This document shows positions 29,386 through 51,831 of a DNA stretch of 64,000 bases, piece after piece. The notes under the pieces were generated by a model. That model worked only from the letters and a program-made list of their open reading frames with translations. It did no database searches and was not told the origin of the DNA. How positions within the stretch are numbered: position 1 is the stretch's first letter; each line of letters starts with the position of its first letter. A program made the translations under genes and the position numbers. Source of the stretch: Blastocatellia bacterium (lineage in GTDB: Bacteria; Acidobacteriota; Blastocatellia; UBA7656); contig JBBWZK010000135.1 in assembly GCA_039648975.1 (NCBI GenBank), positions 753-64,752 of the forward strand, written 5' to 3'.

Positions 29386-29410
29386 AGTTTTGTTGTTCTG
29401 CCTTTTTCGC

Positions 29411-29740: not shown

Positions 29741-30382
29741 GTTTATGCCCTGCGCCAATCGATTTTCTCTATATCAACCGCGAGCGGCTCATCTTCCAGT
29801 GCGCGGCGTTGCCAGATTCGCGCGCTTGAATATAAATAATCCGGCGCGCTTTCGACCAATCCGGCGCGCACCGGGTTGAGGTGAATATAATTGACTTTCT
29901 CCATAAACATCGCTTCGCTGAGAATCAGAAAGGCGTTTGAATGATGTTCCCACAAGGAGTATTGGTATTGCCGAGATTTCACTTCCTGCCGCAACTTTTC
30001 CAGCGAACTGGCATACGCTTTTTCTTTCAGGTAATCGATCACGCGCCGGGCCGCGATGCCATTGATAAACCGCAAAACCTCTTTCGGCAGGCGCGCGCCA
30101 TCGGTGATCAAATGAACATGGTCGGGCATGATGACATAGGCGAAAATCAGAATATTCGCCGACCGCCGCGCTTCATTGAAGGCATTGGCGACGATGGCCT
30201 TGATCTGGTTGGTCTGAAAAACCGGCAACCGATCTTTTGCCACACAGGTCAAATAATAGCAGGGCGCGTCTCTGGAAATTCTGACCATGTTGTTTGATCC
30301 TACGGCGGCGCAGCCGCCAACCTTAAAGAGCCCAGCTATCGGAAAGGCCGAGCCTTTCCGCACATCGGGCGGCAGAGCCGCC
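29655..30382 (-). mobile_element. REP-RAYT-REP unit (REP-associated tyrosine transposase flanked by inverted REPs)
   Basis: The left flank (29655-29740) and right flank (30304-30382) carry the same two hairpin motifs in opposite orientation. These are ggcggctgcgccgcc / ggcggcgcagccgcc and cggaaaggc(t/c)c(c/g)gcctttccg with ggcggctctgccgcc / ggcggcagagccgcc. This is the arrangement described for RAYT loci. Confidence 0.75.
29743..30288 (-). CDS. REP-associated tyrosine transposase (RAYT; IS200/IS605 TnpA-like HUH Y1 enzyme)
   Basis: Track ORF 29743..30363, trimmed to ATG 30288 (MVRISRDAPCYYL). HUH motif MPDHVHLI. Tyr motif YIHLNPVRAGLV. 181 aa. Confidence 0.85.
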   Translation of the reverse strand: MVRISRDAPCYYLTCVAKDRLPVFQTNQIKAIVANAFNEARRSANILIFAYVIMPDHVHLITDGARLPKEVLRFINGIAARRVIDYLKEKAYASSLEKLRQEVKSRQYQYSLWEHHSNAFLILSEAMFMEKVNYIHLNPVRAGLVESAPDYLYSSARIWQRRALEDEPLAVDIEKIDWRRA

Positions 30383-30404
30383 GAGTCAACCGCTGCCGCG
30401 CTTG

Positions 30405-31703: not shown

Positions 31704-31726
31704 AAATTTTAATCGATCCTCAAGCA

Positions 31727-31772
31727 ACCGGCGGCTCTGCCGCCTGATGTGCGGAAAGGCTCGGCCTTTCCG
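31727..31772. repeat. single REP unit (same family as 29411-29740) between hsdR stop and hsdS start
   Basis: ccggcggctctgccgcctgatgtgcggaaaggctcggcctttccgg, read directly. Confidence 0.85.
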
Positions 31773-31817
31773 GCAAGTGGATAATAAATTCATTGAGGCT
31801 GCGCCTCAATGTCTTAA

Positions 31818-34604
31818 CTACACCGCCAAAGCCTCATTCATCTCTTCGATAATCGCATCCATTTCGCTGCCGAAAAGCTGATACATTTTGCCGAGTCCGC
31901 CCGCCGGGGCAAACGGCTCATACTCGAAATCGTCGCGCTCGATGTGAAACGAATTCGCGACGTGGTCTTTGATCATTCTGAGCCATGCCATCTGTTCTTC
32001 GTTGAATTTCAAGGCTCCGGCCTGTTTGCCGAAAACCCACGTCTGAAAATTGCGGTCAACCGTTCTGCCGTATTCGGTCAACGTCGCGTCAATGCCGCAG
32101 ACACGGCGCACCAGCGACACCATAGCAATCAATTCGTTGCCGGGCGAACCGTTCACCGTTTCCAATTGCTGATACGCCCGCCAGACGTTGAGCGGCGCCA
32201 GGTGCGGTCGCCCGCTACGCAATTTGTCGCACAGTTCGCGAATCATCGCGTAAGTCAATTCGCGGCGGCGAACGGGCTGGCTATAAAAAATCTGCAACGC
32301 GGTGATTTCGTCTTTATGCTCGGCGATCCACACGGCGAAATCGCTGATCATCGCCGTCGCCTGTTCCTGATTGTCGGCGTTCCATCCGGCGTTGATCAGC
32401 TTGTCGGGATTGATGATGTCGATAATCTGATCGAGCGCTTTGCGCAGGTTGACGACCAGTTCATTCAGTTCGCCTGTAAAAACTTCGGCGGCCTGTTCAA
32501 TGATCTCCGCGTGCCGGGCATTGAGCTTTTCTTCGACTTGTTCAGGCGCAAGCGGCGGCGACTGGCGGTTGATTTGCTCGCGCAATGCGTCGAGTTGATC
32601 GGCATCATAGGCGGTCAGCAAATTTCTGGCGACTTCCTTGATCGACCGGCCACCGGATTTGTCCTTGAACTGCTCGCGCTGTTTGTCGCTGATCTGTTTA
32701 TCGAGACGAATCAAGCGATTGGCCAGCGAAGAAAAAACGTCTTCGTCGCGCACGCCGACGGCGACCGCCGCGAGCAAATCTTTCAGCGCCACGCCCGGAT
32801 TTCTTTCGAGCGGCTGGCTGTCGGTCTTACAGCTTCGAGTGACGCCGACGGCATCGACGATGACGAAATGGTCTTTGGTAAACTTGGCGGTCCTGGAAAC
32901 TTTGCGCAGATCATCAAGCTCAATCGTTCGCGTGCCGCGCCCTTTCATCTGCTCGAAATAGTTGCGGCTGCGCACGTCGCGCATAAAGAGCAGACACTCC
33001 AGCGGCTTCACATCGGTTCCCGTCGCAATCATATCGACGGTGACGGCAATGCGCGGGTGATAATCGTTGCGAAATTGCGCGAGAATCGATTTCGGGTCTT
33101 CATCGGTTTTGTAGGTCACCTTTTTGCAGAAGCGATTGCCTTCGCCGAACTCTTCGCGGACGATCTGAATAATGTCGTCGGCGTGGCTATCGGTCTTGGC
33201 AAAGATCAGCGTTTTGGGAATCTCGAACTCGCCGTTCTCGTCCCGCCGGTCGGGAAACATTTCGGGCAGACGCGCTTTGAAGGTGCGAATCACCAGCCGT
33301 ATTTGATTGGGATTGACGACGGAATTATCCAGATGAGTCGCCGTGTAGGTTGTGTCTTCGTCAAGCTGTTGCCATCGTTTCTTGCGCGAGAGTTTGTCGC
33401 GGCGGTCTATGAATTCGCCCATCTTCAGCGTCGCGCCTTGTTTTGTGATTTCGGTTTCGATGAGGTAATTGTTGAAGCCGACATTGACGCCGTCAATCAC
33501 GGCTTGCTCGTGGGTGTATTCGCTGACGATGTTTTGATTGAAATAACCGAAGGTGCGATTGTCGGGCGTCGCAGTCAAGCCGATTTGAAAGGCGTCGAAG
33601 TATTCCAAGACCTGTTTCCAGAGGTTGTAAATGCTGCGGTGGCATTCGTCAATCACGACGAAATCGAAAAACTCAATCGGCAGTTTCTCGCTATAAGCAA
33701 CCGGCACAGGTTCTTTCGGTAGCCAGTGCTCGTTGGGGTTTTCGAGCTCGGCGGATTCGTCCAGTTCCGTGCCTCGCAGAATCGAATACAACCGCTGAAT
33801 GGTGCTGATGTAAACCTGATTGTCGGTCGGGATGTAGGCGGATTTCAAGCGATGCACGCCGTAAAGTTCGGTGAATTTGCGATTGTCGTCATTCGGCAGG
33901 TAGGCCATGAATTCCTGCTCGGCCTGTTCGCCGAGATTCTTCGTATCGACCAGGAACAGGATGCGTTTGGCGTTGGTGTATTTCAGCAGACGGTAAATGA
34001 AAGTGATCGCGGTGAACGTCTTGCCTGAACCCGTCGCCATTTGAATCAAGGCTTTCGGCTGATTCTTCCTGAAAGATATTTCAAGATGATTGATCGCAAT
34101 GATCTGGCAGTCGCGCAAATACGCAATCGGTAACTCAGGCAACTTCTGCAAATCGTTCCGCAAAGTACACGGCTGTTTCAACCAATCGCGCAAAGTCTCG
34201 GCACGGTGAAAGGAAAAGACGGGGCGCGAACGCGGTTTCAAATCGCGGTAATCGGTAAAGCGTGTCAGTTCTCCCGTGCTCTCATAAACAAACGGCAGTG
34301 GGTCGTTGTTAAGGTATTTGAGCTTTGCCTGTGCGTAATCTGTTGATTGATCTTCAATCTGGGTCAGTCGGAATCCTTCGCCTGCTTTTTTGGCTTCGAT
34401 TACTCCAACGGGCTTTTTATCAACAAACAAAACGTAATCGGCAGGCCCCACATCGGTTTGATATTCGCGCACCGCGACGCCTGGCGAAGCGCCGAGATTG
34501 ATTTGCTTCTTGCTCTGCACCGCCCAACCGCAAGCGCGGAGTTGCTTATCAATCTGGTCGCGAGCAAGCTGTTCCGGGTTTTGGTTTGTCGTCTTGTCTG
34601 GCAT
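31818..34604 (-). CDS. hsdR: type I restriction enzyme, restriction (helicase/nuclease) subunit
   Basis: 928 aa. N-terminal nuclease-like region. Helicase motif I QMATGSGKTFTA, motif II VIDECHRS, later TATPDNRT and QMKGRGTR. The 592-aa antisense ORF 31944..33722 is a shadow. Confidence 0.9.
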   Translation of the reverse strand: MPDKTTNQNPEQLARDQIDKQLRACGWAVQSKKQINLGASPGVAVREYQTDVGPADYVLFVDKKPVGVIEAKKAGEGFRLTQIEDQSTDYAQAKLKYLNNDPLPFVYESTGELTRFTDYRDLKPRSRPVFSFHRAETLRDWLKQPCTLRNDLQKLPELPIAYLRDCQIIAINHLEISFRKNQPKALIQMATGSGKTFTAITFIYRLLKYTNAKRILFLVDTKNLGEQAEQEFMAYLPNDDNRKFTELYGVHRLKSAYIPTDNQVYISTIQRLYSILRGTELDESAELENPNEHWLPKEPVPVAYSEKLPIEFFDFVVIDECHRSIYNLWKQVLEYFDAFQIGLTATPDNRTFGYFNQNIVSEYTHEQAVIDGVNVGFNNYLIETEITKQGATLKMGEFIDRRDKLSRKKRWQQLDEDTTYTATHLDNSVVNPNQIRLVIRTFKARLPEMFPDRRDENGEFEIPKTLIFAKTDSHADDIIQIVREEFGEGNRFCKKVTYKTDEDPKSILAQFRNDYHPRIAVTVDMIATGTDVKPLECLLFMRDVRSRNYFEQMKGRGTRTIELDDLRKVSRTAKFTKDHFVIVDAVGVTRSCKTDSQPLERNPGVALKDLLAAVAVGVRDEDVFSSLANRLIRLDKQISDKQREQFKDKSGGRSIKEVARNLLTAYDADQLDALREQINRQSPPLAPEQVEEKLNARHAEIIEQAAEVFTGELNELVVNLRKALDQIIDIINPDKLINAGWNADNQEQATAMISDFAVWIAEHKDEITALQIFYSQPVRRRELTYAMIRELCDKLRSGRPHLAPLNVWRAYQQLETVNGSPGNELIAMVSLVRRVCGIDATLTEYGRTVDRNFQTWVFGKQAGALKFNEEQMAWLRMIKDHVANSFHIERDDFEYEPFAPAGGLGKMYQLFGSEMDAIIEEMNEALAV

Positions 34605-35315: not shown

Positions 35316-35632
35316 GTAAATACTCGCTCTGGTTTTTATGAGTGAGTTGGTTAAGGATAAGTGGCTTTGGAATCTGCTTTGAAAGTTTCCAGACCCGCAG
35401 TTCACCAAACTGTCGCTTAACCGCCGATGATAGTTTTGCTGTCCGTTTGGTGCGTATAACAGTTGGGGGAGCAAGCGAAAACAAAATTCTTGATCCCAAG
35501 GCAGGGGTAATTTTGAAAAGTAATCCTTAGTTCAAAAGTTGCTCTGTAGCGTGGGGCAGTCGGTTGCCGTCGAAGCACCGGCTCTCCGTTTACATCAGCT
35601 CGGCAGAACAATGTCGTTTGAGGAGTGGGAAT

Positions 35633-37210
35633 ATGCAAAGCCCTCAAGGGGAGGCTGAAAACCTCATCGAAGGAAAGAATTCTGTTCCAGTCGAAGCCGG
35701 CGCGGCAAACCCTGCACCCGGAAACGGCGTCGCCGGGACACCGCCGGCCATCAAGTTTGGCCGCATGTTTGCCGACCTCACGCGTTTCAGACCTGACAAT
35801 AAAAAACTGATAGAACTGGGTAAAGCGATGCTACATGGGCCAGACCTTGGCGAACATCCTGATCTGCTCGCCGGTTATACGTACCTGGGCCAGTTCATCA
35901 CGCATGACATGACGTTCGACCATAAGCGGGAGATGCTCCCTGAGCCGGTTGATGAGGTGACGAAAATCCAGCAAGATCGAACGCTTGCTCTTTCCCTGGA
36001 AACCCTCTACGGGATCGGTAAACCTTCGGACAATGCCTCATTGTATGATGATCACGCGGCGCTCCCCGAGCGAACATATTTTAAGGTCGGCGTTACAGAC
36101 CCAGAGACCGAGGGCGGGGCTAGTTGCTCATACCGGAATGACCTGCCGAGAGTCAAAAACCAGAACAAGGCGATGATCGGTGACGAGCGCAATGATGCGA
36201 ACTTGGCGCTCGCGCAACTGACCGTGGCATTTCTCAGATTTCATAATCGGGTTGTAGATCACCTCAAATCGAATAACCACCTCAATGAGGATACGTTATT
36301 TGAGAAGGCGCGCAAGATGGTGGTCCAGCATTTTCAATGGATTGTTCTGAAAGATTTCCTGCCAAAAATCATCGAGACAGAGGTGTTGGAATCGGTATTG
36401 GAACCCGTACTAAAGGATGCTCGTGAAAATCGGCCCAGAAACCTCGATGGCAAATGGCCTTTTATACCGGTCGAGTTTTCAGTCGCGGCCTTCCGCCTGG
36501 GTCATAGCATGGTGCGCAGCGCATACGAATGGAATCGCAATTTTCAGACTCCGAACCCTAAGTCTCGTAACGGCGCCGTGCCGCCCTCTGACCTCTTTCT
36601 ACTTACAGGCCGTGACGGAACGATGGGCGAAGGTGGCGGGGCCTTACCGAGCCGGTGGATTATTGATTGGACTCGCTTTTTCGATTTCAACGGCTTTAAC
36701 GGCATCGCCAATAATCCGAAATTCAACCTGGCGAGAAAGATTGATACGAGCCTTTCTCCTGGTCTAAGAAGCTTCAAGGATTTCATTAGCACGGTTATCG
36801 CGGACCCTGACCTCCGGTCGCTGCCCGTGCTGGACTTGATCCGTGGGAGCCGGCTGGGGCTGCCGACCGGGCAGGACGTTGCAGGCGCGCTAAAAGTAGA
36901 TCCACTTGCGGCGACCAAGATTGCCAATGGCCCTCACCAGGAGATCTTGAAAACCCATCATTTCGATGAGCAAACACCGCTGTGGTACTACATCTTGAAA
37001 GAGGCGGAGGTGCTTCACGAAGGGAAATGTTTGGGGCCGGTTGGCAGTCGCATCGTCGCGGAAACGGTCATCGAACTCATGTGGGTGAGCCAGCATTCCA
37101 TTCTCAAAGAGCCCAATTGGAGACCCGAGTTGTGGCAAAAAAAAGAAGGGGAATTTGGCATGGCTGACCTGCTAGTTTTTGCGAATGTCGTCAATCCTCT
37201 GGGCTGTTAA
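35633..37210 (+). CDS. animal-haem-peroxidase-family protein (cytoplasmic; no signal peptide seen)
   Basis: Track ORF 35564..37210, trimmed to ATG 35633 (AGGAG upstream). Distal-His block YLGQFITHDMTFD, then ERNDANLALAQLTVAFLRFHNRVV, proximal-His block FSVAAFRLGHSMV. Confidence 0.8.
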   Translation: MQSPQGEAENLIEGKNSVPVEAGAANPAPGNGVAGTPPAIKFGRMFADLTRFRPDNKKLIELGKAMLHGPDLGEHPDLLAGYTYLGQFITHDMTFDHKREMLPEPVDEVTKIQQDRTLALSLETLYGIGKPSDNASLYDDHAALPERTYFKVGVTDPETEGGASCSYRNDLPRVKNQNKAMIGDERNDANLALAQLTVAFLRFHNRVVDHLKSNNHLNEDTLFEKARKMVVQHFQWIVLKDFLPKIIETEVLESVLEPVLKDARENRPRNLDGKWPFIPVEFSVAAFRLGHSMVRSAYEWNRNFQTPNPKSRNGAVPPSDLFLLTGRDGTMGEGGGALPSRWIIDWTRFFDFNGFNGIANNPKFNLARKIDTSLSPGLRSFKDFISTVIADPDLRSLPVLDLIRGSRLGLPTGQDVAGALKVDPLAATKIANGPHQEILKTHHFDEQTPLWYYILKEAEVLHEGKCLGPVGSRIVAETVIELMWVSQHSILKEPNWRPELWQKKEGEFGMADLLVFANVVNPLGC

Positions 37211-37270
37211 AAAATGGCTTCAGAGCGCACACGTGCAGTTCCTGAAAATAAATCGAAAAGGAGAGCGACC

Positions 37271-37675
37271 ATGGCTAAAAAGATCATTGCTAAGTTGAGA
37301 GCAATAAATGCTCAGGTAGAATTGGAATTGGCCGAGGCGAAATTGGCCAATCTTGAAGATCCGACGATATCGACAGAGTCAGATCTTGCCAAAATCCTGT
37401 CCGACCTCGCTTTGCAGGCGATCCAGGGGGGCCGCGATTCTGCTGCCTGGAAAGCCTATATGCGTAAAATCGTCGGCACGGACAACCCTGACTCTCTGCA
37501 ATTCAAGCGGCTGACCTTTCAGGATGACCTGCGAGGTCAAGACTACGTAGTAAAAAGTAATGTCTACATCGTTGCTAACGCGGTTTGTGGCAGCAACACG
37601 CGGACCAATACCCTGGCAAACGTAGAGACCGAAGGTACAGACATTATCGACAAAGATCTGGCTGCGGAGGCCTGA
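37271..37675 (+). CDS. 134-aa hypothetical protein with helical N-terminal half ending in a double-glycine-leader-like motif
   Basis: Track ORF 37214..37675. ATG 37271 has AAGGAG 7-8 nt upstream; ATG 37214 (3 nt after the peroxidase stop) is the alternative. ...DLAKILSDLALQAIQGG at residues 38-54. Stop TGA 37673-37675 lies 1 nt before the next ATG. Confidence 0.6.
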   Translation: MAKKIIAKLRAINAQVELELAEAKLANLEDPTISTESDLAKILSDLALQAIQGGRDSAAWKAYMRKIVGTDNPDSLQFKRLTFQDDLRGQDYVVKSNVYIVANAVCGSNTRTNTLANVETEGTDIIDKDLAAEA

Positions 37676-37676
37676 G

Positions 37677-39128
37677 ATGAACCGGGAAGCAGGTGAAATT
37701 GAACGACCATCTGATGCTGCCCGCCGCGATGCGAATGCCATTGCGCAATCGCTATCGCGGTTGTGGCAGCGTCTTTGTAAAACTTATTTGCCTGTAGCGC
37801 CGGAAGATTCAATCTGGAGCTTCAGCCGCGCCATAAAGGCGAGCGACCCGGAGCAGGGCTGGAAGCTTCATGTTTCGGCAAACCTGCTGACGGCCTGCGA
37901 AGTCCTCGAACGGGTTGCCCCATTTCTACAGGCCCGCGAGGTTCTCTTTAAGGCCCCTTCGACATTGCAATGGCTCAGTCAACTCAACTGCGGCCTTGAT
38001 CGGGAGTATAGCCAGGTCGGGAAGTTCATTACCGTCTATCCTGGCAGTGACGAAGAGGCGGTTTTTCTGGCGCGGCGGTTGCACAAAATGACTCTTGGCC
38101 GATCCGCTCCCGCCGTGCCGTTTGATCTGAAGTTCCGGCCCGATAGCTCTGTTTATTATCGCTATGGGGGCTTCAAGGCATTGGAAATCATTAACCCTGA
38201 CGGCACCCGCACGCCGGCCATCCGAAATCAGAATGGCGAGCTGATCTCGGACTTATGCAAAGACGGAGCTGCGAGGCCCGTCTGGATATCTGATCCTTTT
38301 ATTAATCAACAGACGCGACGCAAACCAAAGATGATTGAGAATCCGTTCAGCACCAATCTTCTGGTGCTTCGCGCCTTGAGCCAGAGGGGAAAAGGAGGCG
38401 TCTACCAGGGCATTGATCTGAGCGATTCGAAGCCGCGCCTTTGCATCATAAAAGAAGGGCGTCATGGTGGCGAGATAGGCTGGGATGGCCGCGACGGCAA
38501 CTGGAGAGTACGAAATGAAGAATGGGTACTGCGGAGCTTGCGAGTTGCGGGCCTCAACGTTCCGCGTACTTACTCTTCCTTTGAACTCGAACGCAATTAC
38601 TATCTGGTGACAGAATTCATTGAGGGCGACACGCTCCAGAGGCGGCTGAACAAGAGAAAGCGGCGGTTGAGCATCACTCAAGCGCTGCGCTATGGCCATG
38701 AGATTGCGCGCCTTATATCCAAGATCCACGCCGCCGGTTGGGCATGGCGCGATTGTAAGCCGGCCAATCTGCTGGTGACGACGAAAGGCGAATTAAGGCC
38801 GGTCGATTTTGAAGGGGCTTGTCCCTTGGATAAGCCGGATCCTTTGCCCTGGAATACGCCGGAATTCTCTCCTCCGGAATGGCAAGATGCGTGTGCGCCG
38901 CAATCGAGAATAGCTGAAGATATTTATGCGGTCGGGGCGGTCATGCATTATTTATTAACCGGCAGATGGCTTGATGCTTCAAGCCGTGTACGACTATCTG
39001 AATTGCGCCCAAACGTACCTGCTTTCGTGTGCGCACTGGTCTCCGACATGGTGGCTAGCGACCCTCAGCAAAGACCCAGCGCCAGGTGCTTGACAGACAA
39101 ATTCAAAGCAGCTTTATCGTTGGCCTAG
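37677..39128 (+). CDS. LanKC/LanL-like phosphoSer/Thr-lyase domain + Ser/Thr kinase domain, no cyclase domain
   Basis: 483 aa, GGAGG 8 nt upstream. N-terminal blocks QGWKLHVSA, FKAPSTL, QVGKFITVYP, VYYRYGGF, ISDPF resemble my memory of the RamC/LabKC N-termini. Kinase motifs GKGGVYQG, CIIKEG, WRDCKPANLLV, VDFEGA, FSPPEW. The protein ends about 60 aa after the kinase core. Confidence 0.65.
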   Translation: MNREAGEIERPSDAARRDANAIAQSLSRLWQRLCKTYLPVAPEDSIWSFSRAIKASDPEQGWKLHVSANLLTACEVLERVAPFLQAREVLFKAPSTLQWLSQLNCGLDREYSQVGKFITVYPGSDEEAVFLARRLHKMTLGRSAPAVPFDLKFRPDSSVYYRYGGFKALEIINPDGTRTPAIRNQNGELISDLCKDGAARPVWISDPFINQQTRRKPKMIENPFSTNLLVLRALSQRGKGGVYQGIDLSDSKPRLCIIKEGRHGGEIGWDGRDGNWRVRNEEWVLRSLRVAGLNVPRTYSSFELERNYYLVTEFIEGDTLQRRLNKRKRRLSITQALRYGHEIARLISKIHAAGWAWRDCKPANLLVTTKGELRPVDFEGACPLDKPDPLPWNTPEFSPPEWQDACAPQSRIAEDIYAVGAVMHYLLTGRWLDASSRVRLSELRPNVPAFVCALVSDMVASDPQQRPSARCLTDKFKAALSLA

Positions 39129-42947: not shown

Positions 42948-43019
42948 CGGAAATAGATGACCGGAATACTTGATCCGGTCGTCAACTCAACAACCAAAAA
43001 CCAAACATGGAGCAAACAA

Positions 43020-43676
43020 ATGCGGAAATATTTTCTCATGGCCGTCCTCTTACTCATCGGGGAAAGCTCTGCGCTGGCGCAGGAATGCTGCCCTTCCAAG
43101 GAAATCTTTTTGGGATACTCGTATTTTAATGCGAGCGCGACCGGGGATCGCATTTCGTCCAATCAATTCACCTCCCGCTATGGTCTTAACGGAACCGGCG
43201 CGAGCTTCGCCTGGAACCGATCTCCCAAGCTCGGCTTTATCGGGAACTTCAGCTACAACGCTAGAAAGTCGACCATCGGCGAAGCGGTCATAGGCGGAGT
43301 GACGATAGGCGAAGCGAAATCGAAGCTGAGAAATTACACCCTTTTGTTTGGGCCGCAGTTTTCTGCGCGCAGCAGCGACACCAATTATTTCCTGCATGTG
43401 ATGGCCGGGATGATTATTAAACAGGCCGAACTGTCGGGAGCCATTAATCCCGACAACCCGGCCATGACGGTGAACTTAAAATCAACCAGCACCAATCTGG
43501 CTCTGGGGATTGGCGGCGGCTTCGACATGCATGTCGCCAGGCATCTGAGCTTGCGGTTGTTTCAGTTGGACTACATACCCTCGCGGGTCGAGAAAGATAC
43601 ATTGGATGGCAAGGCATGGAATCATAACTTCAGATTGCAGGCGGGAATTCTGATTAGCTGGGGCTTGGCTAAATAG
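43020..43676 (+). CDS. small outer-membrane beta-barrel protein
   Basis: Track ORF 42957..43676, trimmed to ATG 43020 (GGAG upstream; MRKYFLMAVLLLIGESSALAQ signal peptide). Alternating hydrophobic/polar strands (LGYSYFNASA, GASFAWN, GFIGNFSYN, LALGIGGGFDMHV, FRLQAGILISW). Confidence 0.6.
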   Translation: MRKYFLMAVLLLIGESSALAQECCPSKEIFLGYSYFNASATGDRISSNQFTSRYGLNGTGASFAWNRSPKLGFIGNFSYNARKSTIGEAVIGGVTIGEAKSKLRNYTLLFGPQFSARSSDTNYFLHVMAGMIIKQAELSGAINPDNPAMTVNLKSTSTNLALGIGGGFDMHVARHLSLRLFQLDYIPSRVEKDTLDGKAWNHNFRLQAGILISWGLAK

Positions 43677-43791: not shown

Positions 43792-46700
43792 ATGAAAATG
43801 AAGAATGCTGTCAATCGCCTGTTTGCCCTGTTTGTCTCTATTGCGCTCTTATCCCCCCTGTTCGCATTGAGAGCCGAGGCCGGAGACAACAAGGGGAACA
43901 AGGATAGAGTAATCATTCACATCGGCGCGCCGGCAGTCTGGTCATTGGGACAGGCGCATTACCTGTTGGCGAAGATGCAAAAGAACAACCTGCAACTTGA
44001 AACCAACACGCCCGGTAAAGAGGCTCTGGATCCCAACGCCATCAATGCGACGAAAATCCAGATACTGCGAACGCTACTCGATGTTGAGGCGCAGTTCAGC
44101 GAAAAGATCGGCGCTGAAAACCGAGCGGAGCTCGATGCCTTCAAAGATAAGCTTAAGCGCAGGGAAGAGCAGCGGACCGAACTCAGGCGCAAGCAGGCAG
44201 AACTCGATGACCTGGATACGGAATTGAGAACGCTGCGACAAAGACAAGCCCGAATGCAGAAGGAATTAGAGCAGATACAGACTGAGCGCAAGCGGCCAAA
44301 GCCGGACCCACAAGACCCATCGAAGACGCTGCCTACTCCGCCGCCCAGCGCTGATGAGAATGAGTTAGAGCAGGACCTGGCCGCAATGGGCCAGAAGATA
44401 AATGAAAAGCAGAAAGAGCGGGATAAGGTAAAAGGCGAAGTTGATGAACTGGAGAAGCAAGCTAATACGGATGTGGCGGGGCCGAAACTGTCAGAGGTTC
44501 AGCTTGGCAACGGCGCGTCATTGCCCAGTGCTACCAAGTCCATCTCAGATCGTATAGATAAAGTCATAACTAACATGAATGACCCGCGCTTTGCGGCCTC
44601 AATCGTGCTGGATAATTTCATCGGCATGCAATATGAGATCATCGCCAAGCAATTGACGCTTTTGCGAGACGAGGTCGGCCCGGACGAGCGCATTGTGTTT
44701 CTCGAACTCCCCTCATCGATCTACACGGTGGCATGTAAGGGGGATGAGTATATTGCGCAGGTTCAGTGGGCCGTCACGGAGTATTATGATGATCCCGATA
44801 TTCACGAGGCGACTGAAGACCGTGAAACGACCATGAATAAGGCGGCTCGCCTGGCAGAGGCGTTCAGGCAATCCAACCTTAAATCAGACAGCAACAGAAC
44901 CGACGACCCGGATAAAAAGAAGCCGGAAGGCGAACCCGTAACTGTACAGCTTAACCATTTAACCGAAAATGAACAGAACTACATAGGCCGTCAAGACTAC
45001 ATCGCTCTCAGGAATCGAAAAATCGCATTGATTAAAAATCAGCAAGCGGTTAAAAGCATTGATCCCCGCGATGCCAACTGGACGACGGCTGATTCCAGCA
45101 CGGTGAGAGCCGTTGATGTCATCCCGCGCCAGAGCGCCCTGAATGTCAATGAAGTTCAATCGACCACCAGCCAGAAAAATTTTCTCGGCGTCATGAAGCT
45201 GCTGATCGGTCTCGGTGTCAGGGTGAATTATCAAAGGCAACAGGAATTGTATGAGCAGTATCTTCAGCAGGAGGTTTTCGCTTCTGGCTTTGGCAAAGGC
45301 CGCAACGCCTTCGGATGGACCTTTGGCCCGCTGCCGGGCACCGACCGCATCTCGCCGGGCGTTCGCACGACCTTTGCCGCGCTAGTCATCCCGCGCAGCG
45401 CCTCGCTCTTGCGATTGGAGGCCAGGGGCGTCGCCTTCCACAGAAAAGAGGCCCCCGCCCTGGAAGAGCCGGACTTGGCGACCGGGAATGACATACCGAT
45501 TTACAAGAATGGATCTCGTCATCTGGTCTTTAAGGACGATTTTGCCATCATTATTCCTAATGAGACGACCGAGAAGTTCGAGGTCAGCAGCATTAATTAC
45601 ACACCGGCTAGAAAGGGAGAGCCGGTAACGGTCGTTGTCAAAGGAAGCTATTTCTCGCCGCAGTCAGGCATACTGGTCGACGGCGTGCCGCTAGTCAGAA
45701 GCCTGTCGCTCGGTAATACGGCCACTTCAGAAGCCATCAAGGACCCGGATGGGGCCGGTGTTCGCGGCCAGTATGAACAGGTCAGCTCGCACGAGATCGT
45801 CATGAAGTTCTCGATGCCCGATAACTTTGCCGGCACTCCTAACATAACGCTTGTCACCCCGGAAAAATCATCGGCGTTGAACTTCATCACTCTGTTAATC
45901 AATGATCACAGGCCGAATACGACGCTCCGCGACCTGGTTGTGACCGAACCTATGTTTATGCCCTCTTTCAGTCTGCAAACGAAATTCACTGATATGCGGG
46001 ATGACGGCAGTACGGGTTTCAAGTTCGCGCTGCTTAGAGGGACGGGGCTGAGACGCAAAGCGGAGGTGTGGGTGAACGGCGAGGAATTGAAGCTTTTCAG
46101 AAAGACAGAAAGTCAGATGAAGCTTCTGAGAGATTATACGCCCAGACGCACTCTCGATGATCTGGACTTGCGCGAACTCCGGCGAAGTATTGCTTACGCT
46201 TATCAGCAGGATATCTGTGCCAGGCTTGGCGGTTGCACCCCCGAAGATAGCTGGCGACTATTCAGACAGAAGGAGTTGCAGTTGTTGGATAGTAACGAGC
46301 TATACAAGGCCGTCAAAGAAATGGAAATCGCCAGGCTCAAAAATCTCCCTGCCGCCAAGCCTGAAAGTCAGATCACGCAGGACATAGAGGACAAGTACGA
46401 GAAGCCGCAAGTGCCTCAATACATCATTGAACAGAATGTCGGCGAGTATCAGCTACGGTTTAAGAAAACCAACCCGGAAAAATACGCGGTCAGGTACGGG
46501 CAGAACGCCATCAATAATTACGAAGCAAGCGACTTCACTCAGGTAGAAATTACCGAAGACGCGACGCTGATGAATTACGCCCCCAACTACGAAAAGTCCG
46601 TGGCTCGCGTAGACGTAAGATTCAAGGTTCCTGATAAGGCGGTCGTCAAAGCTGTAGAGGTTTCACCGAGTGACAAAGAGGACAAAGCGATCAGCCTCCA

Positions 46701-47169
46701 TGCCGAGGGCAATAATTACTATCGAGCCCTCCTCAATGTCAAGTTCGACGATCTTGGTAACAACACGCAAGTCGAAAAAGAGAAGATCTCTGTGACTGTG
46801 ATCTATGCAGACGGCAGGTTGAAGACTTATGACTTAAGTCCCCCCCTACGCCCGCGTATTACAAAGATCACGCTCGATCAGCCGACAGTCGCCGATAATG
46901 ATGGCCCTGTGGTTTCGGTCGAAGGCAACAATCTCAAGGGCATTAAAAAGGTGAAGGTCGGCGACAAGGAAGCCGACATTGTTGGCTGGCAAAGTCCGAA
47001 CACTCTGTTGATCAAACTGAAAGGCATAGAGATTAAGAAAGATACGCCTGTGCAGGTCCCGCTTGTCCTGGAAGCCGAAGACGGCACCAAGCTAACCGTA
47101 ATAGTAACTGTAGGCGAGACGAAAAAGAAGAAGGAGCAATCCGCCGACCAGGCACCCGAAAAGAAGTGA
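43792..47169 (+). CDS. 1125-aa secreted orphan protein: signal peptide, long coiled coil, central unknown region, IPT/TIG-like domains
   Basis: GGAGG upstream. MKMKNAVNRLFALFVSIALLSPLFALRAEA signal peptide. Heptad-rich charged region (DAFKDKLKRREEQRTELRRKQAELDDLDTELRTLRQRQARMQKELEQIQ). IPT-like segments (VSSINYTPARKGEPVTVVVKGSYFSPQSGILVDGVPL; ITKITLDQPTVADNDGPVVSVEGNNLKGIKKVKVGDKEADIV). Lys-rich tail. Confidence 0.7.
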   Translation: MKMKNAVNRLFALFVSIALLSPLFALRAEAGDNKGNKDRVIIHIGAPAVWSLGQAHYLLAKMQKNNLQLETNTPGKEALDPNAINATKIQILRTLLDVEAQFSEKIGAENRAELDAFKDKLKRREEQRTELRRKQAELDDLDTELRTLRQRQARMQKELEQIQTERKRPKPDPQDPSKTLPTPPPSADENELEQDLAAMGQKINEKQKERDKVKGEVDELEKQANTDVAGPKLSEVQLGNGASLPSATKSISDRIDKVITNMNDPRFAASIVLDNFIGMQYEIIAKQLTLLRDEVGPDERIVFLELPSSIYTVACKGDEYIAQVQWAVTEYYDDPDIHEATEDRETTMNKAARLAEAFRQSNLKSDSNRTDDPDKKKPEGEPVTVQLNHLTENEQNYIGRQDYIALRNRKIALIKNQQAVKSIDPRDANWTTADSSTVRAVDVIPRQSALNVNEVQSTTSQKNFLGVMKLLIGLGVRVNYQRQQELYEQYLQQEVFASGFGKGRNAFGWTFGPLPGTDRISPGVRTTFAALVIPRSASLLRLEARGVAFHRKEAPALEEPDLATGNDIPIYKNGSRHLVFKDDFAIIIPNETTEKFEVSSINYTPARKGEPVTVVVKGSYFSPQSGILVDGVPLVRSLSLGNTATSEAIKDPDGAGVRGQYEQVSSHEIVMKFSMPDNFAGTPNITLVTPEKSSALNFITLLINDHRPNTTLRDLVVTEPMFMPSFSLQTKFTDMRDDGSTGFKFALLRGTGLRRKAEVWVNGEELKLFRKTESQMKLLRDYTPRRTLDDLDLRELRRSIAYAYQQDICARLGGCTPEDSWRLFRQKELQLLDSNELYKAVKEMEIARLKNLPAAKPESQITQDIEDKYEKPQVPQYIIEQNVGEYQLRFKKTNPEKYAVRYGQNAINNYEASDFTQVEITEDATLMNYAPNYEKSVARVDVRFKVPDKAVVKAVEVSPSDKEDKAISLHAEGNNYYRALLNVKFDDLGNNTQVEKEKISVTVIYADGRLKTYDLSPPLRPRITKITLDQPTVADNDGPVVSVEGNNLKGIKKVKVGDKEADIVGWQSPNTLLIKLKGIEIKKDTPVQVPLVLEAEDGTKLTVIVTVGETKKKKEQSADQAPEKK

Positions 47170-47364
47170 CTCACCTGACCTGAAGAGCCGAAGGGGGCGG
47201 ATGGAAATGCAAATAATCAGGGATTCTATTTTCAGATGCCGGACTCGATTGATTCACAGAATCCTTGCATCCTGAGATAGCGGCGGCGACGGTTGTCGAT
47301 TAATCTCGGGCGAAAGAAAACAGGTCCATCTCACAGGTCAAAATCTGGAAAGGAAGTTTAGATC

Positions 47365-50250
47365 ATGACCATTGACAATCAACAAATCGCAGCGACGACC
47401 GAACGGTATAACAAGCGTGAGCGACACCGTCAACGCAACGAGCGGCTGATTAAACAACGGCGTTATCTGGAAGCCGACTCGCCGGCGCGCGTAGAGAAAT
47501 TTCTTGAGCGGCGCGGCATCAGCCGACAGGAAGCTGCCGAAATCCTGCATGAGTCTGCGCCGACAATGATGCCGAGGGCGGGGCGAAACGAGGGGGAGGG
47601 AGTCCCCGCCGCCTTTGAACGCATACTCGGCACCAACGATTTGATGGGGGTTGCCTTCCTCGAACGAGGGCTTCAAGTCGCGCGAACGGTCGGGCGAGTC
47701 TGGATTGCCGTTGCCAGCGGGCGACCGCTTGGGTACGGCACTGGCTTTATGATCTCGCCGCGCCTGCTAATGACCAATAACCATGTTCTCAGCAGTGCGG
47801 TCGACGCGCGAAAGTCTCTCGTAGAGTTCAATTATCAACTCGGTATCGACGGCAATGTCTTGGCGACGACGTCCTTTAGTCTCGATCCGGACACTTTCTT
47901 TTTCACAGATCAGCACCTGGACTATGCGGTGGTTGCTGTGCGGTTGAACAGAGCCGACAACGCAAGCTTGAGCGGCTTTGGCTGGAACCCTCTCTTTGAG
48001 GAGGAGGGCAAGGCCATCATCTCACAACAACTGAATATCATTCAGCACCCGAATGGAGAAGTGAAGCAACTGTGCCTGCGCGAGAACCAGTTGGTGGATG
48101 TTTTTGACGATTTTCTCCAGTACCGGACCGACACAGCACCGGGGTCGTCAGGCTCACCCGTTTACAATGATCGCTGGGAGGTCGTCGGGCTGCATCATTC
48201 AGGTGTAAGAGCCAAGAATGCCGCTGGTCAGATATTAGCGGTTGATGGGCGAATCTGGGACCCGAGCATGGGTGAACATCGCATCAAATGGATTGCCAAT
48301 GAAGGGATTCGTGTCAGTCGGCTCATCAATCACTTGCGCAATCAGCCGATGAATCAGGATCAAAGGCGACTCTGCGATGAGATTCTAACCAAGACGCCGC
48401 CCGCCCCTGGCGAGGCAAGCCCGCTGCCTGTAGCGCCCGTCTCTAGTCAGGTCTTTAGTAATAATGATCATTCAGCACAGGTCGCTGTCGCCTCTGACGG
48501 CACCGCCACATGGACTATCCCGCTATCGGTTTCAATCAGATTGGGCGCCGCCGCCACCCCGGCTACCGTCGCGCAGCCGAAAACCGACGTGGTCACGCCG
48601 CCGGCGATCCTCTCCTCTACGCCGACGCCCGTTCCCCCGCCAGTTTCAAGCGACCCGCAATCAATTCTTTCCGCGGCCCGACGTGAGTTGGGGGCGCGCG
48701 CTGATGTGCTGAGCGTCAGGCTTGGCTATGCATTCAAGGAAGGCTGGATCACCAATGAACGGGCGCTGGTCATCACTGTCCGGCAGAAGCATAGCCCGGC
48801 GGCGTTGCGTGAGGCAGGCATTTCTCCGCTGCCAGAAACCTATATGGGCTTGCCAATCGAAGTAACCAATCCGGCAATCGAGGAACTCGTCACTTTAGCC
48901 CGTGGAACGGCAGCGACTGAAGCCGCTTTTGCCGCACCTGCGACCATGCGCGAGGAGATTGCTTACACGTCTCCGGTTGGAGTTTCTCTCAAACAGCTTC
49001 ATGCGCAAATGCGTGTGATTGCGCATGTCAGCCCCGACGCCGGGTGGCCCAGGTTATCAACATTTTTAGCGGCAACGAAAAAGCGCCTGGTGGTTGGCAT
49101 GTATGACTTTGGCGCTCCTCACATTGCCGACGCGGTGGCGGCTGCCGGAAAGCAAGTCTCATTTAAGAAATTGACGCTGGTGATGCAACACGGTGAAGAT
49201 GTCGGAGACGGAACGAAGGCCAACGACCTGACCGATGATCAGGTCGTTGAGAAATTCAGCGAGGCCTTTCCGAATAAGTTTGAAAACGCCTGGGTCAAAA
49301 TCGGAAGGGTTAATGGCTGGGTGGCTTCATCCTATCATATAAAAGTTGCCGTGCAGGATCAGCGGGTCTTTTGGCTGTCTAGCGGCAACTGGCAATCATC
49401 AAATCAGCCGAATGGTGATCCGCTTAATGAAAACCCACAACGCCGGATGTGGCTTGAGAAGTTCAATCGGGAGTGGCATGTCGTCGTAGAGAATCCTGAC
49501 CTGGCTAAGGTCTTCGAAGCGCATTTGCTCCATGATTTCAACAACAACCTTGGGGTAAGCGAACATGAGAGACAACCGGCGGTCGACCTACCTGACCTGT
49601 TGATTCCCGATGAATTTTTCATGCCCAGTCCACATGAGAGAACGTCACCATTTCAGTACTTCAAGCCGTTTGACGAAAACCGGGTATTTACCGTCAAGCC
49701 ACTGCTGACGCCGGATAATTATCATCAAGAGGTTCTGAAACTGGTGGAAAGCGCCAAGGAAGAATTGCTCATTCAGAACCAGACCTTCAACGCGCCCAAG
49801 CCAGACCATGAGAAACTTCGCGAGTTGCTTGACGCCGTCAAGGCCAGACAGCGTGCGGGCGTCGATGTCCGGGTCATCTTTCGCATCCTTTTCCCCTCAA
49901 AAGCCCGGCAGGTGATCGAGGAGTTGAAGGATTTCGGGTTTGACGTAAGCAACGTGAAGGTGCAGAAGAATTGTCACACCAAAGGCATCATCGTCGATCA
50001 CAAACGTGTGCTACTGGGTAGCCAGAATTTGTCCAACGACGGCGTCTCCGTGAATCGTGATGCCAGTCTGTTGTTTGAGGACGTGTCGCTCGCTAAGTAC
50101 TTCGCTGCTATTTTCGAACACGATTGGAGCAACCTCGCCAAACAAAACATTGGCATGGAGGAGATGCCCATCGAATGGGCCGAGCCCCATGAAAAGACCC
50201 CATCAGGATTTGTCCGACTAAATTGGAAGGAGTATCTGGAGATGTTATAA
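47365..50250 (+). CDS. fusion protein: basic helical N-terminus + trypsin-like serine protease + Pro/Thr linker + two-HKD phospholipase-D-superfamily domain
   Basis: 961 aa, GGAAAGGAAG upstream, no signal peptide. Triad contexts LMTNNHVL, LDYAVVAV, TAPGSSGSPVY. Linker TPPAILSSTPTPVPPPVSS. HKD motifs SYHIKVAVQD...SSGNWQSSN and CHTKGIIVDHKRVLLGSQNLSNDG. Confidence 0.8.
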   Translation: MTIDNQQIAATTERYNKRERHRQRNERLIKQRRYLEADSPARVEKFLERRGISRQEAAEILHESAPTMMPRAGRNEGEGVPAAFERILGTNDLMGVAFLERGLQVARTVGRVWIAVASGRPLGYGTGFMISPRLLMTNNHVLSSAVDARKSLVEFNYQLGIDGNVLATTSFSLDPDTFFFTDQHLDYAVVAVRLNRADNASLSGFGWNPLFEEEGKAIISQQLNIIQHPNGEVKQLCLRENQLVDVFDDFLQYRTDTAPGSSGSPVYNDRWEVVGLHHSGVRAKNAAGQILAVDGRIWDPSMGEHRIKWIANEGIRVSRLINHLRNQPMNQDQRRLCDEILTKTPPAPGEASPLPVAPVSSQVFSNNDHSAQVAVASDGTATWTIPLSVSIRLGAAATPATVAQPKTDVVTPPAILSSTPTPVPPPVSSDPQSILSAARRELGARADVLSVRLGYAFKEGWITNERALVITVRQKHSPAALREAGISPLPETYMGLPIEVTNPAIEELVTLARGTAATEAAFAAPATMREEIAYTSPVGVSLKQLHAQMRVIAHVSPDAGWPRLSTFLAATKKRLVVGMYDFGAPHIADAVAAAGKQVSFKKLTLVMQHGEDVGDGTKANDLTDDQVVEKFSEAFPNKFENAWVKIGRVNGWVASSYHIKVAVQDQRVFWLSSGNWQSSNQPNGDPLNENPQRRMWLEKFNREWHVVVENPDLAKVFEAHLLHDFNNNLGVSEHERQPAVDLPDLLIPDEFFMPSPHERTSPFQYFKPFDENRVFTVKPLLTPDNYHQEVLKLVESAKEELLIQNQTFNAPKPDHEKLRELLDAVKARQRAGVDVRVIFRILFPSKARQVIEELKDFGFDVSNVKVQKNCHTKGIIVDHKRVLLGSQNLSNDGVSVNRDASLLFEDVSLAKYFAAIFEHDWSNLAKQNIGMEEMPIEWAEPHEKTPSGFVRLNWKEYLEML

Positions 50251-50415: not shown

Positions 50416-50578
50416 TTAGATCGGCTTGCGATGGGATGTAGGGCAAGCGGTGCAATATGGAGTGCGGTGACTGGTCACCGCTGTGCAGCATTCGATTGCA
50501 ACAAAGCGGCGACCAGTCTCAGCACTCCAAAACAGGCCGCTTCTCCTATGCCCTACACCGATCTGAAATCCGATCTAA
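50416..50578. repeat. nested-palindrome REP-like element (ATGTAGGGCA ... TGCCCTACAC with internal GGAGTGC-N-GCACTCC arms)
   Basis: Read directly. Outer arms ttagatcgg / ccgatctaa. Then atgtagggca (50436) / tgccctacac (50549-50558). Inner arms ggagtgcggtgactggtcaccgct / agcggcgaccagtctcagcactcc. Track ORF 50457..50831 (MECGDWSPLCS...SGDQSQHSK) is its translation artefact. Confidence 0.75.
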
Positions 50579-50601
50579 ATCCACTCATGACATGCGCCGG
50601 T

Positions 50602-51831
50602 TTATAGATAGCTCAACCACCAATCCCGGCGGCGACGCTTCAATTCGGCAAACCAACGGCAAAGCGGATAGAGCAACAAGAGGCCCACTAACCAGAACAC
50701 ATACACCACCCATAACGAAAAGCCCAGATTGCCTGGGTTGGGGCGTGGCTGATCCATTGGCCCGACGAATAGCCAGCCAGTCGGCTGCCCCGCAAGGTAA
50801 CCAACCAGCACGGCCAGCCCGTGTGCCGTGAGCCACTGCCCCACATAAAAAATCAGCGGCACGCGCCCGAACGTAATCAAGACGCTTGAGAGAGTTCCTT
50901 CTCTCTCCCGCTCAACCCAAGAAAGGACAAGCATCGCCGGGCCCAGGGTCATCAGCAAGAATAACAACGAGGGCGGATATTTCGAGACGTTGAGAAAGGA
51001 AAGCACAGTGAACCACCCATTCTCTTGCACGCTCCAGCGGCTCGGATCGCCGTATACGTTCAAGCCTCGCAGCACAACGAAACCGAGTAACAAGCCCGCG
51101 CCCAGTCTGAATAGCATGCGCCGTCGTCGTGCTGCTTCCCATTGATAAAATGCGCCGAAGCAGTAGCCCGCCGCTAACACGCCAACCCAGGGAATCAACG
51201 GATAAAGCAGAAGTCCATACACGTTGGCCGTCAATAAGACCATGCCCTGCTGATGCAATAACATCCAAAACGCATCCGAGACGCCCGACAGCGAGTTGAC
51301 CGAAACCGTAAACGACTGAACCCTGATATGGTCGAGCAGGTTATGCAGCGCGATCATGGCGATACTGCCCACGGCAATGACGCGCAGCGGCAGGTAAATC
51401 AAGCCCGCGAGCAAGATCATCGAAACGCCAATGACCCAGATGACCTGCAACATGAAGGCGAAGTGAAAGTCGAGATTGAACCAGACGATGACGCGAAGGA
51501 CGGTAAGTTCTAGCAGAATTAACCAAAGCCCGCGCGTGATGAGAAACCTCGATAACTCGGCTTTGCTCTTGCAGCGGGCCGCCCGCAGGAACGCGCCAGT
51601 ACCTGCGAGAAAGACAAAGACCGGCGCACAAAAATGAGTCACCCAGCGCGTGAAGAAGAGTAGCGTGTGGGTTTTCGTGAGATCAGTAGGATCGAAATTT
51701 AGCGCCTCGCGATGAAAGTATTCGCGTGTGTGATCGAGCATCATAACGACCATCACAGCCCCGCGCAGCAGATCAATAGCATTGACGCGCCCCCTTCGTT
51801 CGCTCAGATCATTTTGCAGAGCACTTTGCAT
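50602..51831 (-). CDS. DUF1624 / heparan-alpha-glucosaminide N-acetyltransferase-like membrane acyltransferase
   Basis: 409 aa. N-terminal [25 protein letters not shown], about 10 hydrophobic segments. Confidence 0.75.

Follow-up and report, generated by a model that had tools for sequence, protein, structure and literature searches.

A solo bacterial protein joining a V8/Spl-like serine protease to a two-HKD phospholipase D unit: a candidate protease-gated degradative enzyme

What is gained by carrying a trypsin-like serine protease and a complete phospholipase D (PLD) unit on one polypeptide? The question is raised by a gene of a Blastocatellia bacterium, found in a 64,000-nucleotide stretch of contig JBBWZK010000135.1 (hereafter the window) and identified by reading of the open reading frame (ORF), Pfam and homologue alignment as a 961-amino-acid (aa) protease-PLD fusion at 47365..50250 of the forward (+) strand, stop codon included. 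The reading that fits best, in which we place about even confidence, is that the protein belongs, as a PLD variant, with the trypsin-NucA conflict systems, which are known from computational prediction. In more general terms, and with equally balanced confidence, it would be an intracellular, self-contained, protease-gated degradative enzyme composed of two portable cassettes, in which the PLD is likelier a nuclease than a lipase.

The ORF starts with ATG and runs uninterrupted through 961 codons at 47365..50250 (+), and a Shine-Dalgarno-like AAGGAAG was read from the intergenic sequence at 47350..47356 (+), 8 nt ahead of the start codon. An identical protein is on record as 'MAG: hypothetical protein V7641_1582 [Blastocatellia bacterium]', whose source is a metagenome-assembled genome (MAG) of Blastocatellia (Acidobacteriota). 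An earlier note on this DNA had described one polypeptide with a trypsin-like protease and a two-HKD PLD, which is confirmed by the ORF, by the Pfam families Trypsin_2 and PLDc_2 and by the conserved catalytic residues. The motifs it had listed were all located, namely TNNHVL at aa 137-142, DYAVVAV at 186-192, GSSGSPV at 260-266, HIKVAVQD...SSGNW at 658-676 and HTKGIIVDHKRVLLGSQNLS at 871-890. The concern that the ORF consists of two genes fused by a sequencing frameshift is ruled out, because more than 100 homologues, drawn from several phyla with identities of 52-72%, have the same length (940-980 aa) and align end to end.

The anatomy of the protein was derived from a 27-sequence alignment of full-length homologues, per-domain identity statistics and an AlphaFold2 model with a mean pLDDT (the score predicted for the local distance difference test) of 72. 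The S1 chymotrypsin-fold, V8/Spl-like serine protease spans aa 85-345 (47617..48399, +), where Pfam Trypsin_2 matches aa 125-276 with E 1.6e-24 and 87.7 bits against a cut-off of 27.6. The triad follows the order His-Asp-Ser, with the codons of H140 at 47782-47784, D186 at 47920-47922 and S262 at 48148-48150, and is kept without exception, in 27/27 full-length homologues as well as in 25/25 relatives that share the N-terminal part of the protein. The nearest PDB sequences are those of staphylococcal V8, Spl and exfoliative toxins, at E 5e-9 and weaker. These S1B glutamyl endopeptidases are secreted by means of a signal peptide and carry a propeptide, whereas the protease described here is preceded by a charged helical domain without a hydrophobic signal.

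The PLD unit has two lobes. Lobe 1, aa 545-740 (48997..49584, +), contains HKD motif 1 with H658, K660, D665 and S672-S673-G674-N675 (49336-49389), and lobe 2, aa 769-925 (49669..50139, +), contains HKD motif 2 with H871, K873, D878 and G885-S886-x-N888 (49975-50028). Pfam PLDc_2 matches in two stretches with E 2.1e-23 and 83 bits against a cut-off of 27, the match in lobe 2 covering 791-921. The protein thus has the two HxK(x)4D(x)6G(S/G)xN motifs of the PLD superfamily as well as its two-lobed fold, which Foldseek recognises with E about 1e-14. A conserved C-terminal tail, '...RLNWKEYLEML' at aa 926-961 (50140..50247, +), for which two strands and a helix are predicted, is part of the PLD module and is kept both in the 27-sequence alignment and in protease-less PLD relatives. 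The residues H658, K660, D665 and N675 of motif 1 and H871, K873, D878 and N888 of motif 2 are invariant in 27/27. Conservation of the triad and HKD residues had been proposed as a check, and its outcome, with every one of them invariant in the 27 homologues, shows strong purifying selection on both catalytic centres. In contrast, the trypsin domains of some other conflict systems are mostly inactive (PMC7159879).

Ahead of the protease lies an Arg-rich helical N-terminal domain (N-domain), aa 1-62 (47365..47550, +), with the invariant residues Q7, R14, R18, R22, R42 and R49, which includes the basic segment noticed earlier, ERYNKRERHRQRNERLIKQRRYLE at aa 13-36. Helices are predicted at 5-30, 34-37, 40-49 and 54-63 with a pLDDT of about 80, and a dedicated model of the domain likewise gives four helices at pLDDT 70. 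The N-domain is an orphan domain: it has no Pfam family even at E<=10 and no PDB sequence match, Foldseek with the dedicated model returns nothing significant (best E 1.7), and a hidden Markov model of the domain finds exactly one copy per locus, always on the protein itself and only together with this protease family. A CARD/death fold, an idea suggested by PMC10312443, is rejected by Pfam, by the PDB sequence search and by the Foldseek result of E 1.7 at best; an EAD is rejected by the empty Pfam result at E<=10 and by an hhalign probability of 0.04 against EAD1. The invariant arginines suggest that the domain may bind a phosphate-rich or acidic partner. The highly charged N-terminus is devoid of a hydrophobic signal region, in agreement with the earlier statement that a signal peptide is absent, and the protein has no transmembrane segments.

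The segments that join the domains are predicted to be largely disordered. Linker 1, aa 63-84 (47551..47616, +), has a pLDDT <50 and a mean pairwise identity of 0.26. Linker 2, aa 346-430 (48400..48654, +), is rich in Pro/Ala/Ser/Thr, has a pLDDT <50 and falls to a pairwise identity of 0.18 outside a conserved island; the Pro/Thr/Ser linker noticed earlier is found here, as a Pro/Ala/Ser/Val/Thr-rich stretch at aa 343-430. The island, DGTATWTIPLSVSIR at aa 379-393 (48499..48543, +), has a pairwise identity of 0.60 and is predicted with low confidence to be a beta-hairpin of two short strands. The hairpin accompanies the protease whichever effector follows, being present in Endonuclease-I-type relatives and, in a recognisably similar form, with the Rhizobium-type protease. 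Linker 3, aa 526-544 (48940..48996, +), has a pLDDT <50 at 524-532 and contains E531-I532-x-Y534, whose E, I and Y are the same in 27/27; PLD modules on other protease types do not keep the E-I pair. This pattern suggests that linker 3 is a candidate processing site. That one cleavage motif might serve universally in the joint from middle domain to PLD was considered and rejected, as the linker varies with the protease type and E531-I532-x-Y534 is invariant within the subfamily only.

Between linkers 2 and 3 lies a middle alpha/beta domain, aa 431-525 (48655..48939, +), with a pLDDT of about 85, which always occurs with this PLD and resembles Pfam NAL1_N. The copy described here scores below threshold (E 0.11), the homologous segments of relatives reach 1e-7 (above the gathering score) and 4e-4, and PDB chains of NAL1 match the segment of a relative at E 0.009. 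In the plant serine protease NAL1 (PDB 8HAU, 8PMM and others), a non-canonical 'ATP-binding domain' (ABD) packs on the protease domain and holds a trimer together, and the active hexamer arises when a strand N-terminal to the ABD pairs with another subunit's protease domain (PMC12012508). Besides the relation of the middle domain to NAL1_N, bacterial relatives of the PLD module are fused to NAL1-type proteases; however, the protease described here is V8/Spl-like and not NAL1-type, and the match of its middle domain is sub-threshold. The equivalents of the ATP ligands R120, R122, K123 and K139 of NAL1 are V (23/27), K/E/R, N/D and K/R, of which only the last (K475) is a conserved basic residue. 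With a single phosphate ligand of the four kept, ATP binding by the NAL1_N-like domain finds no support and was rejected.

Central to how the two enzymes are related is their exchange among relatives. In a genome scan, three types of match were found: full length, N-terminal only (1 to ~420) and C-terminal only (~382-440 to 961). They delimit cassette 1, consisting of the Arg-rich helical N-domain, the protease and the Pro-rich linker with its hairpin, and cassette 2, consisting of the NAL1_N-like domain and the PLD. The partners of each were counted by Pfam in two subsets of 25 and 28 proteins, respectively. The effectors on cassette 1 are Endonuclease_1 (13), Endonuclease_NS (5), Lipase_3 (2) and Metallophos (1), and these relatives keep the helical N-domain, the triad (25/25) and the hairpin motif. 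The partners of cassette 2 are NAL1_N (8), a second Trypsin_2 type (5), CHAT (3), caspase (1) and LCAT (1), and the HKD residues are invariant in 28/28. Protease-less versions of 520-660 aa also exist. Three such loci, L058, L067 and L078, are preceded on the same strand by a trypsin-like gene with its end 6-28 nt upstream, for which Pfam Trypsin_2 was confirmed at L067, and at L060 an M10/M12 metallopeptidase begins 22 nt downstream. At L058 (9761-11689) the order is NAL1_N - PLD with the separate trypsin-like gene upstream, and in some relatives, as at L084 (9623-12787), it is NAL1_N - PLD - NAL1-type protease, so that the PLD unit stands between the halves of a NAL1-like protein. This two-way 'Rosetta stone' exchange of cassettes argues for a peptidase that works on its attached enzyme or jointly with it. 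Since the PLD module is fused to or placed beside unrelated peptidase folds, it appears to need 'a peptidase' generically, as would be expected of a proteolytic activation step.

More distant relatives link the family to multi-gene systems. On rhizobial plasmids, they are giant Trypsin_2+PLD proteins in operons with a caspase-family protein. In Mesorhizobium pOM4 (L087, 4182-12116), the operon includes genes for an alpha/beta-hydrolase, a caspase-family protein, another trypsin-like peptidase and a protein of 1449 aa; in Bradyrhizobium pBb1S5b (L088, 3838-11424), it includes genes for an M12 peptidase, a caspase-family protein and a protein of 1788 aa, with a trypsin and S8 peptidase pair nearby; insertion sequence (IS) elements lie beside both. 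Trypsins tagged with EAD1 or EAD5 adjoin relatives in L072/L076 and L078. In the Thermomicrobiales MAGs (L072, 4935-10240; L076, 21-5357), a protein composed of EAD1, Trypsin_2, Ig-like repeats and a C-terminal hydrophobic segment is encoded immediately upstream of a protein composed of the N-terminal cassette and Endonuclease I, a two-gene arrangement that is closely like the NucA-trypsin 'System 3' (Kaur et al. 2020, PMC7159879). Operons of this kind, with caspase, hydrolase, M12 and S8 peptidases and EAD-trypsins, are characteristic of the conflict systems that Kaur et al. predicted.

System 3 (Kaur, Burroughs, Iyer, Aravind, eLife 2020, PMC7159879), which is a computational prediction only, couples a trypsin-like peptidase, often by fusion, to a nuclease effector whose activation by proteolysis was proposed. 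The present family shares this coupling: Endonuclease_NS, the NucA family, is the effector in 5/25 of the cassette-1 proteins (e.g. P0220), and the peptidase has an intact active site. It differs in that the effector here is a two-HKD PLD behind a NAL1_N-like domain instead of NucA/Endonuclease_NS, that the gene is solo, with a multi-peptidase or EAD operon absent from the window and from most loci (only some relatives, L072/L076, L078, L087 and L088, have one), and that the Arg-rich N-domain is not an EAD. PLD has 0 occurrences in Kaur et al. 2020 and in its 2021 sequel.

A second comparison is offered by the CARD-protease/NLR-like ATPase systems of Wein et al. (PMC10312443), which employ gasdermin, phospholipase or endonuclease effectors; in related three-gene operons, some effectors are noted there as fusions with trypsin-like proteases. 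In those systems, too, the lethal effector is controlled by a trypsin-like protease whose N-terminal domain is small and helical. However, no STAND/NLR ATPase is adjacent here and none recurs in the 84 loci compared, no second protease is nearby, the N-domain shows no death-fold similarity, and the effector is on the same chain.

Based on these comparisons, the following working may be proposed. The full-length protein would be a latent zymogen; as a nuclease or lipase without an antidote gene, it must be self-inhibited. A signal, received perhaps through the Arg-rich N-domain and/or by oligomerisation, would turn the protease on. By analogy with NAL1, the protease domain may be the docking surface for the hairpin and the NAL1_N-like domain, or these two may promote oligomerisation. 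The protease would then cleave a disordered inter-domain linker, in cis or between subunits, and the freed or activated PLD would degrade cellular or invader DNA/RNA (or membrane lipid), so that the cell is arrested or killed. The logic would be that of abortive infection or programmed cell death. In animal apoptosis, a protease unleashes the latent caspase-activated DNase (CAD/ICAD), by which the DNA of the cell is destroyed; the proposed working would be similar, in one polypeptide. The analogy is functional only, as the folds are unrelated and the protease and the putative nuclease share one chain here, with no separate inhibitor.

As for what the PLD would act on, its best matches among solved structures, by sequence, are Zucchini/MitoPLD (2.7e-8) and PLD3 (~2e-6), followed at ~1e-4 by Nuc and by the nicking-joining enzyme of poxviruses. 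It shares the HKD chemistry of the PLD nucleases (Nuc, Zucchini/MitoPLD, PLD3/PLD4, DrmC) and has two HKD motifs per chain as in PLD3/4, whereas those enzymes lack its NAL1_N-like domain and C-terminal tail. The best NCBIfam and PADLOC matches, DrmC and NucT, are all sub-threshold. Membership in DrmC of DISARM, which the earlier note had named as an example of a PLD nuclease effector, was rejected: model NF038319 gives 43.7 bits against an equivalog cut-off of 133, the best PADLOC DrmC model (E 6e-12) covers one lobe only, and DISARM partner genes are missing, since the three neighbouring ORFs have no meaningful PADLOC match and helicase or methylase genes do not recur in the 84 loci. Among the identified alternative effectors on the same chassis, 18/21 are nucleases, and for this reason a nucleic acid is modestly favoured over a lipid as the probable substrate.

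Several observations weigh against the proposed conflict effector. Foldseek also matches lipid-acting PLDs (Streptomyces PLD, PLD1/2, PssA), ranked together with PLD3/4, and Lipase_3 and LCAT fusions occur among the relatives; because lipid and nucleic-acid PLDs are scored alike, the fold speaks equally for a nuclease and for a lipase, and these matches and fusions leave a lipid substrate only somewhat the less probable choice. The cleavage sites in the linkers are candidates. The N-domain shows no recognisable ligand-binding or adaptor homology in Pfam, PDB, hhalign or Foldseek searches. The association with defence islands is weak: among 140 immediate neighbours at 37 loci, a handful match PADLOC, mostly as a generic helicase, and most are metabolic, transport or regulatory genes. 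No experimental study on any family member was found in the searchable literature. The suggestion of the earlier note that the protein is a conflict or abortive-infection effector is the one best supported by the domain swaps and by the relatives in caspase, trypsin and EAD operons. Owing to the weakness of the defence-island signal, our confidence in a specifically anti-phage role is moderate, and a broader role in programmed death or stress fits the evidence equally well.

A more specific version of the protease-gated enzyme, which we regard as tentative, is a single-chain immune or suicide device. In this version, the N-domain would sense a phosphate-rich ligand, such as invader nucleic acid or a nucleotide alarm, and activate the protease beside it, the protease would cut its own linker, and an active PLD nuclease would be freed. 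Such a device would be the bacterial one-chain counterpart of caspase-activated DNase, for which Endonuclease I, NucA and a lipase would be plug-in alternatives, and it is put forward with the same reserve.

The rival that survives best is a dual-warhead effector, which we consider doubtful. According to this explanation, protease and PLD are independently toxic and share a joint switch, such as oligomerisation through the N-domain, the hairpin or the NAL1_N-like domain, and self-processing does not occur. A precedent exists in the effector of a Pedobacter CARD system, which has two enzymatic domains and needs both for defence (PMC10312443), and the homologous ABD of NAL1 together with its N-terminal strand builds an oligomer that is needed for protease activity (PMC12012508). 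The equal conservation of both active sites is also in line with two independent activities. However, this explanation does not account for the at least 5 unrelated peptidase folds, small stand-alone neighbours included, that are found with the PLD module, nor for the long disordered inter-domain linkers with their conserved islands.

The distribution of the family bears on the remaining rivals. In a word-indexed search, 2276 proteins were found at E<=1e-3; the best 120 of them have almost all the same architecture with 51-71% identity, and the source names among these 120 include Blastocatellia, Chthoniobacterales, Phycisphaerae, Gemmatimonadales, Rubrobacteraceae and Dongiaceae. When 1.84 billion representatives were searched exhaustively with a profile, the matches numbered 15,280 at E<=1e-3 and fell to 2,653 at E<=1e-30; at the 50% level there were ~12 full-length clusters. 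In GTDB, at least 536 loci with a relative of any architecture were found among 185,579 species representatives. The architecture is therefore widespread, yet a small minority of species carry it, and the expectation that it is undescribed or rare was not borne out: it is common in sequence databases, though functionally uncharacterised, under generic names such as 'V8-like Glu-specific endopeptidase' and 'phospholipase D-like domain-containing protein'. Members are scattered patchily across phyla; in GTDB, the nearest relative of this acidobacterial gene is verrucomicrobial (61% identity), before other Acidobacteriota (59%, 55%). No member is found in the 50,697 phage records of INPHARED, and the family is practically absent from the 2.9 million viral contigs of IMG/VR, where one distant protease-only match was found; plasmids hold no member of the same family, only module-level relatives with <60% identity. 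In the isolate Falsiroseomonas sp. HW251 (L047, 4815-7312), a tblastn match covers query 1-961 in 2498 nt with a longest ORF of 678 aa, and this copy is possibly a disrupted or internally deleted full-length gene. Other carriers that can be cultured are Methylobacter luteus IMV-B-3098, Methylobacterium variabile DSM 16961, Scytonema sp. NIES-4073 and Streptomyces spp., with the Endonuclease I form, and Rhizobium sp. BK376, Mesorhizobium plurifarium STM8773, Haloferula luteola YC6886 and Phyllobacterium brassicacearum STM 196, with trypsin-PLD relatives.

A more distant prospect is that the protein is an exported hydrolase or interbacterial toxin, released non-classically or by lysis, which acts on extracellular DNA, lipid, protein or neighbouring cells; the protease would then serve in release or maturation, as peptidases of polymorphic toxins do, a role that we consider just as unlikely. 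The constant N-terminal part followed by a variable C-terminal nuclease or lipase does resemble the layout of polymorphic toxins, one homologue adjoins a VirD4/TraG-type coupling protein, and the V8/Spl relatives are secreted enzymes. Against this stand the charged N-terminus without a hydrophobic signal region, the lack of an immunity-like gene downstream in the window and of a conserved one in the 84 loci, and the lack of recurring secretion-system genes among the neighbours. Furthermore, the cassette occurs in diderm and monoderm phyla alike (Acidobacteriota, Cyanobacteria, Streptomyces, Bacillus), so no single specialised secretion system fits. On these grounds, the secreted enzyme with a non-classical export route that the earlier note had offered as its alternative is not supported. 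Membership of the polymorphic toxins was likewise rejected, as neither a recognisable trafficking domain, a downstream immunity gene nor a conserved downstream neighbour was found.

The genomic surroundings show that the protease-PLD gene is a solo gene without a conserved partner. No neighbour family occurs in more than 9 of the 84 loci, where the top family is a generic LuxR-type response regulator, and neither a conserved immunity gene nor a second N-domain copy nearby was found in these loci. Four homologues that lie on long contigs are surrounded by wholly different genes; the one in L003, for instance, stands between hisD/DUF2948 and murA. It had been considered whether the architecture would turn out to be common and annotated in a housekeeping context; it is common and often has housekeeping flanks, but it never lies within a conserved housekeeping operon. 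A part in housekeeping phospholipid or nucleic-acid metabolism, in which a PLD of the cardiolipin/phosphatidyl-transferase or nucleotide-salvage type would be joined to a quality-control protease, is highly improbable: such neighbours and weak matches to models and folds of cardiolipin synthase and PssA may speak for it, but the scores are far under the cut-offs (TIGR04265 27.5 vs 290, ClsB 19.2 vs 281, PssA 19 vs 314), transmembrane segments are lacking, the distribution is sporadic, the gene context is never conserved, and an exchange of effectors with Endonuclease I and Endonuclease_NS is unlike a lipid-synthesis enzyme. The same scores led to the rejection of membership in the cardiolipin synthases and phosphatidylserine synthases.

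In the window, the gene is flanked by an outer membrane protein (OMP) beta-barrel gene and the gene of a 1125-aa surface protein upstream and by a convergent acyltransferase gene downstream. The acyltransferase (409 aa) is encoded at 50602-51831 on the reverse (-) strand. Ahead of it, only short low-complexity ORFs and no immunity-like ORF were found; one ORF of 124 aa at 50457-50831 (+), which has no family matches and overlaps the acyltransferase gene, is probably not a gene. The 1125-aa protein (43792-47169, +) resembles a signal peptide at its N-terminus, includes a long coiled coil, is repetitive and Ig-like in its C-terminal half, and has no Pfam family. Between this gene and the protease-PLD gene neither a sigma-70-type promoter nor a terminator was found, the scans giving nothing above the shuffled expectation, and for this reason the two genes may be co-transcribed. 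The earlier proposal of a conserved link with the 1125-aa gene fails, as the pairing is common only to a second assembly of the same organism. The OMP gene (42957-43676, +) precedes the 1125-aa gene, as does a divergent pair of an extracytoplasmic function (ECF) sigma factor and a Ser/Thr-kinase with tetratricopeptide repeats (TPR). The OMP gene, the 1125-aa gene and the sigma/kinase pair are a possible cell-surface module.

Further upstream lies a Type I restriction-modification (R-M) locus at 27895-34604 (-), with hsdM at 27895-29643, hsdS at 30405-31793 and hsdR at 31818-34604. Its distance of 12.8 kb from the protease-PLD gene agrees with the one given earlier, but it is not a conserved neighbour. 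An IS200-like Y1 transposase ORF (29743-30363) sits between hsdM and hsdS. The interval 35564-39128 (+) contains an animal-haem-peroxidase-like gene (35564-37210), a 153-aa ORF without a Pfam match and, at 37677-39128, a gene that combines RamC_N with a protein kinase; RamC_N is the domain found at the N-terminus of lanthipeptide-synthetase-like RamC proteins. The G+C content is 0.518 over 28000-56000, a stretch that holds the R-M locus, the kinase and sigma genes and the protease-PLD gene, versus 0.576 and 0.582 in the flanks. There are no tRNA genes in the window and no integrase among the ORFs scanned.

The protein is thus an uncharacterised variant of a predicted kind of system in which a peptidase is coupled to a degradative effector, and in kind it would not surprise specialists in conflict systems. 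What distinguishes it is the solo single-chain layout, the PLD effector with its NAL1_N-like domain, the orphan Arg-rich N-domain and the conserved hairpin in the linker. The Arg-rich N-domain and the linker hairpin are hereby defined as two conserved elements that had no name, the 'ATP-binding domain' of plant NAL1 is tied to a bacterial effector module, and the predicted trypsin-nuclease conflict systems are extended to PLD effectors. The chassis is naturally modular, with at least 5 effector types on the sensor-protease unit and at least 5 peptidase folds serving the PLD unit. If the role is mundane, thousands of entries named 'V8-like endopeptidase' or 'PLD-like protein' could still be given a consistent annotation. 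If protease gating is true, the family would represent a compact system in which a lethal nuclease or lipase is silenced without an antitoxin and fired by proteolysis, a principle known so far mainly from gasdermins and multi-gene systems.

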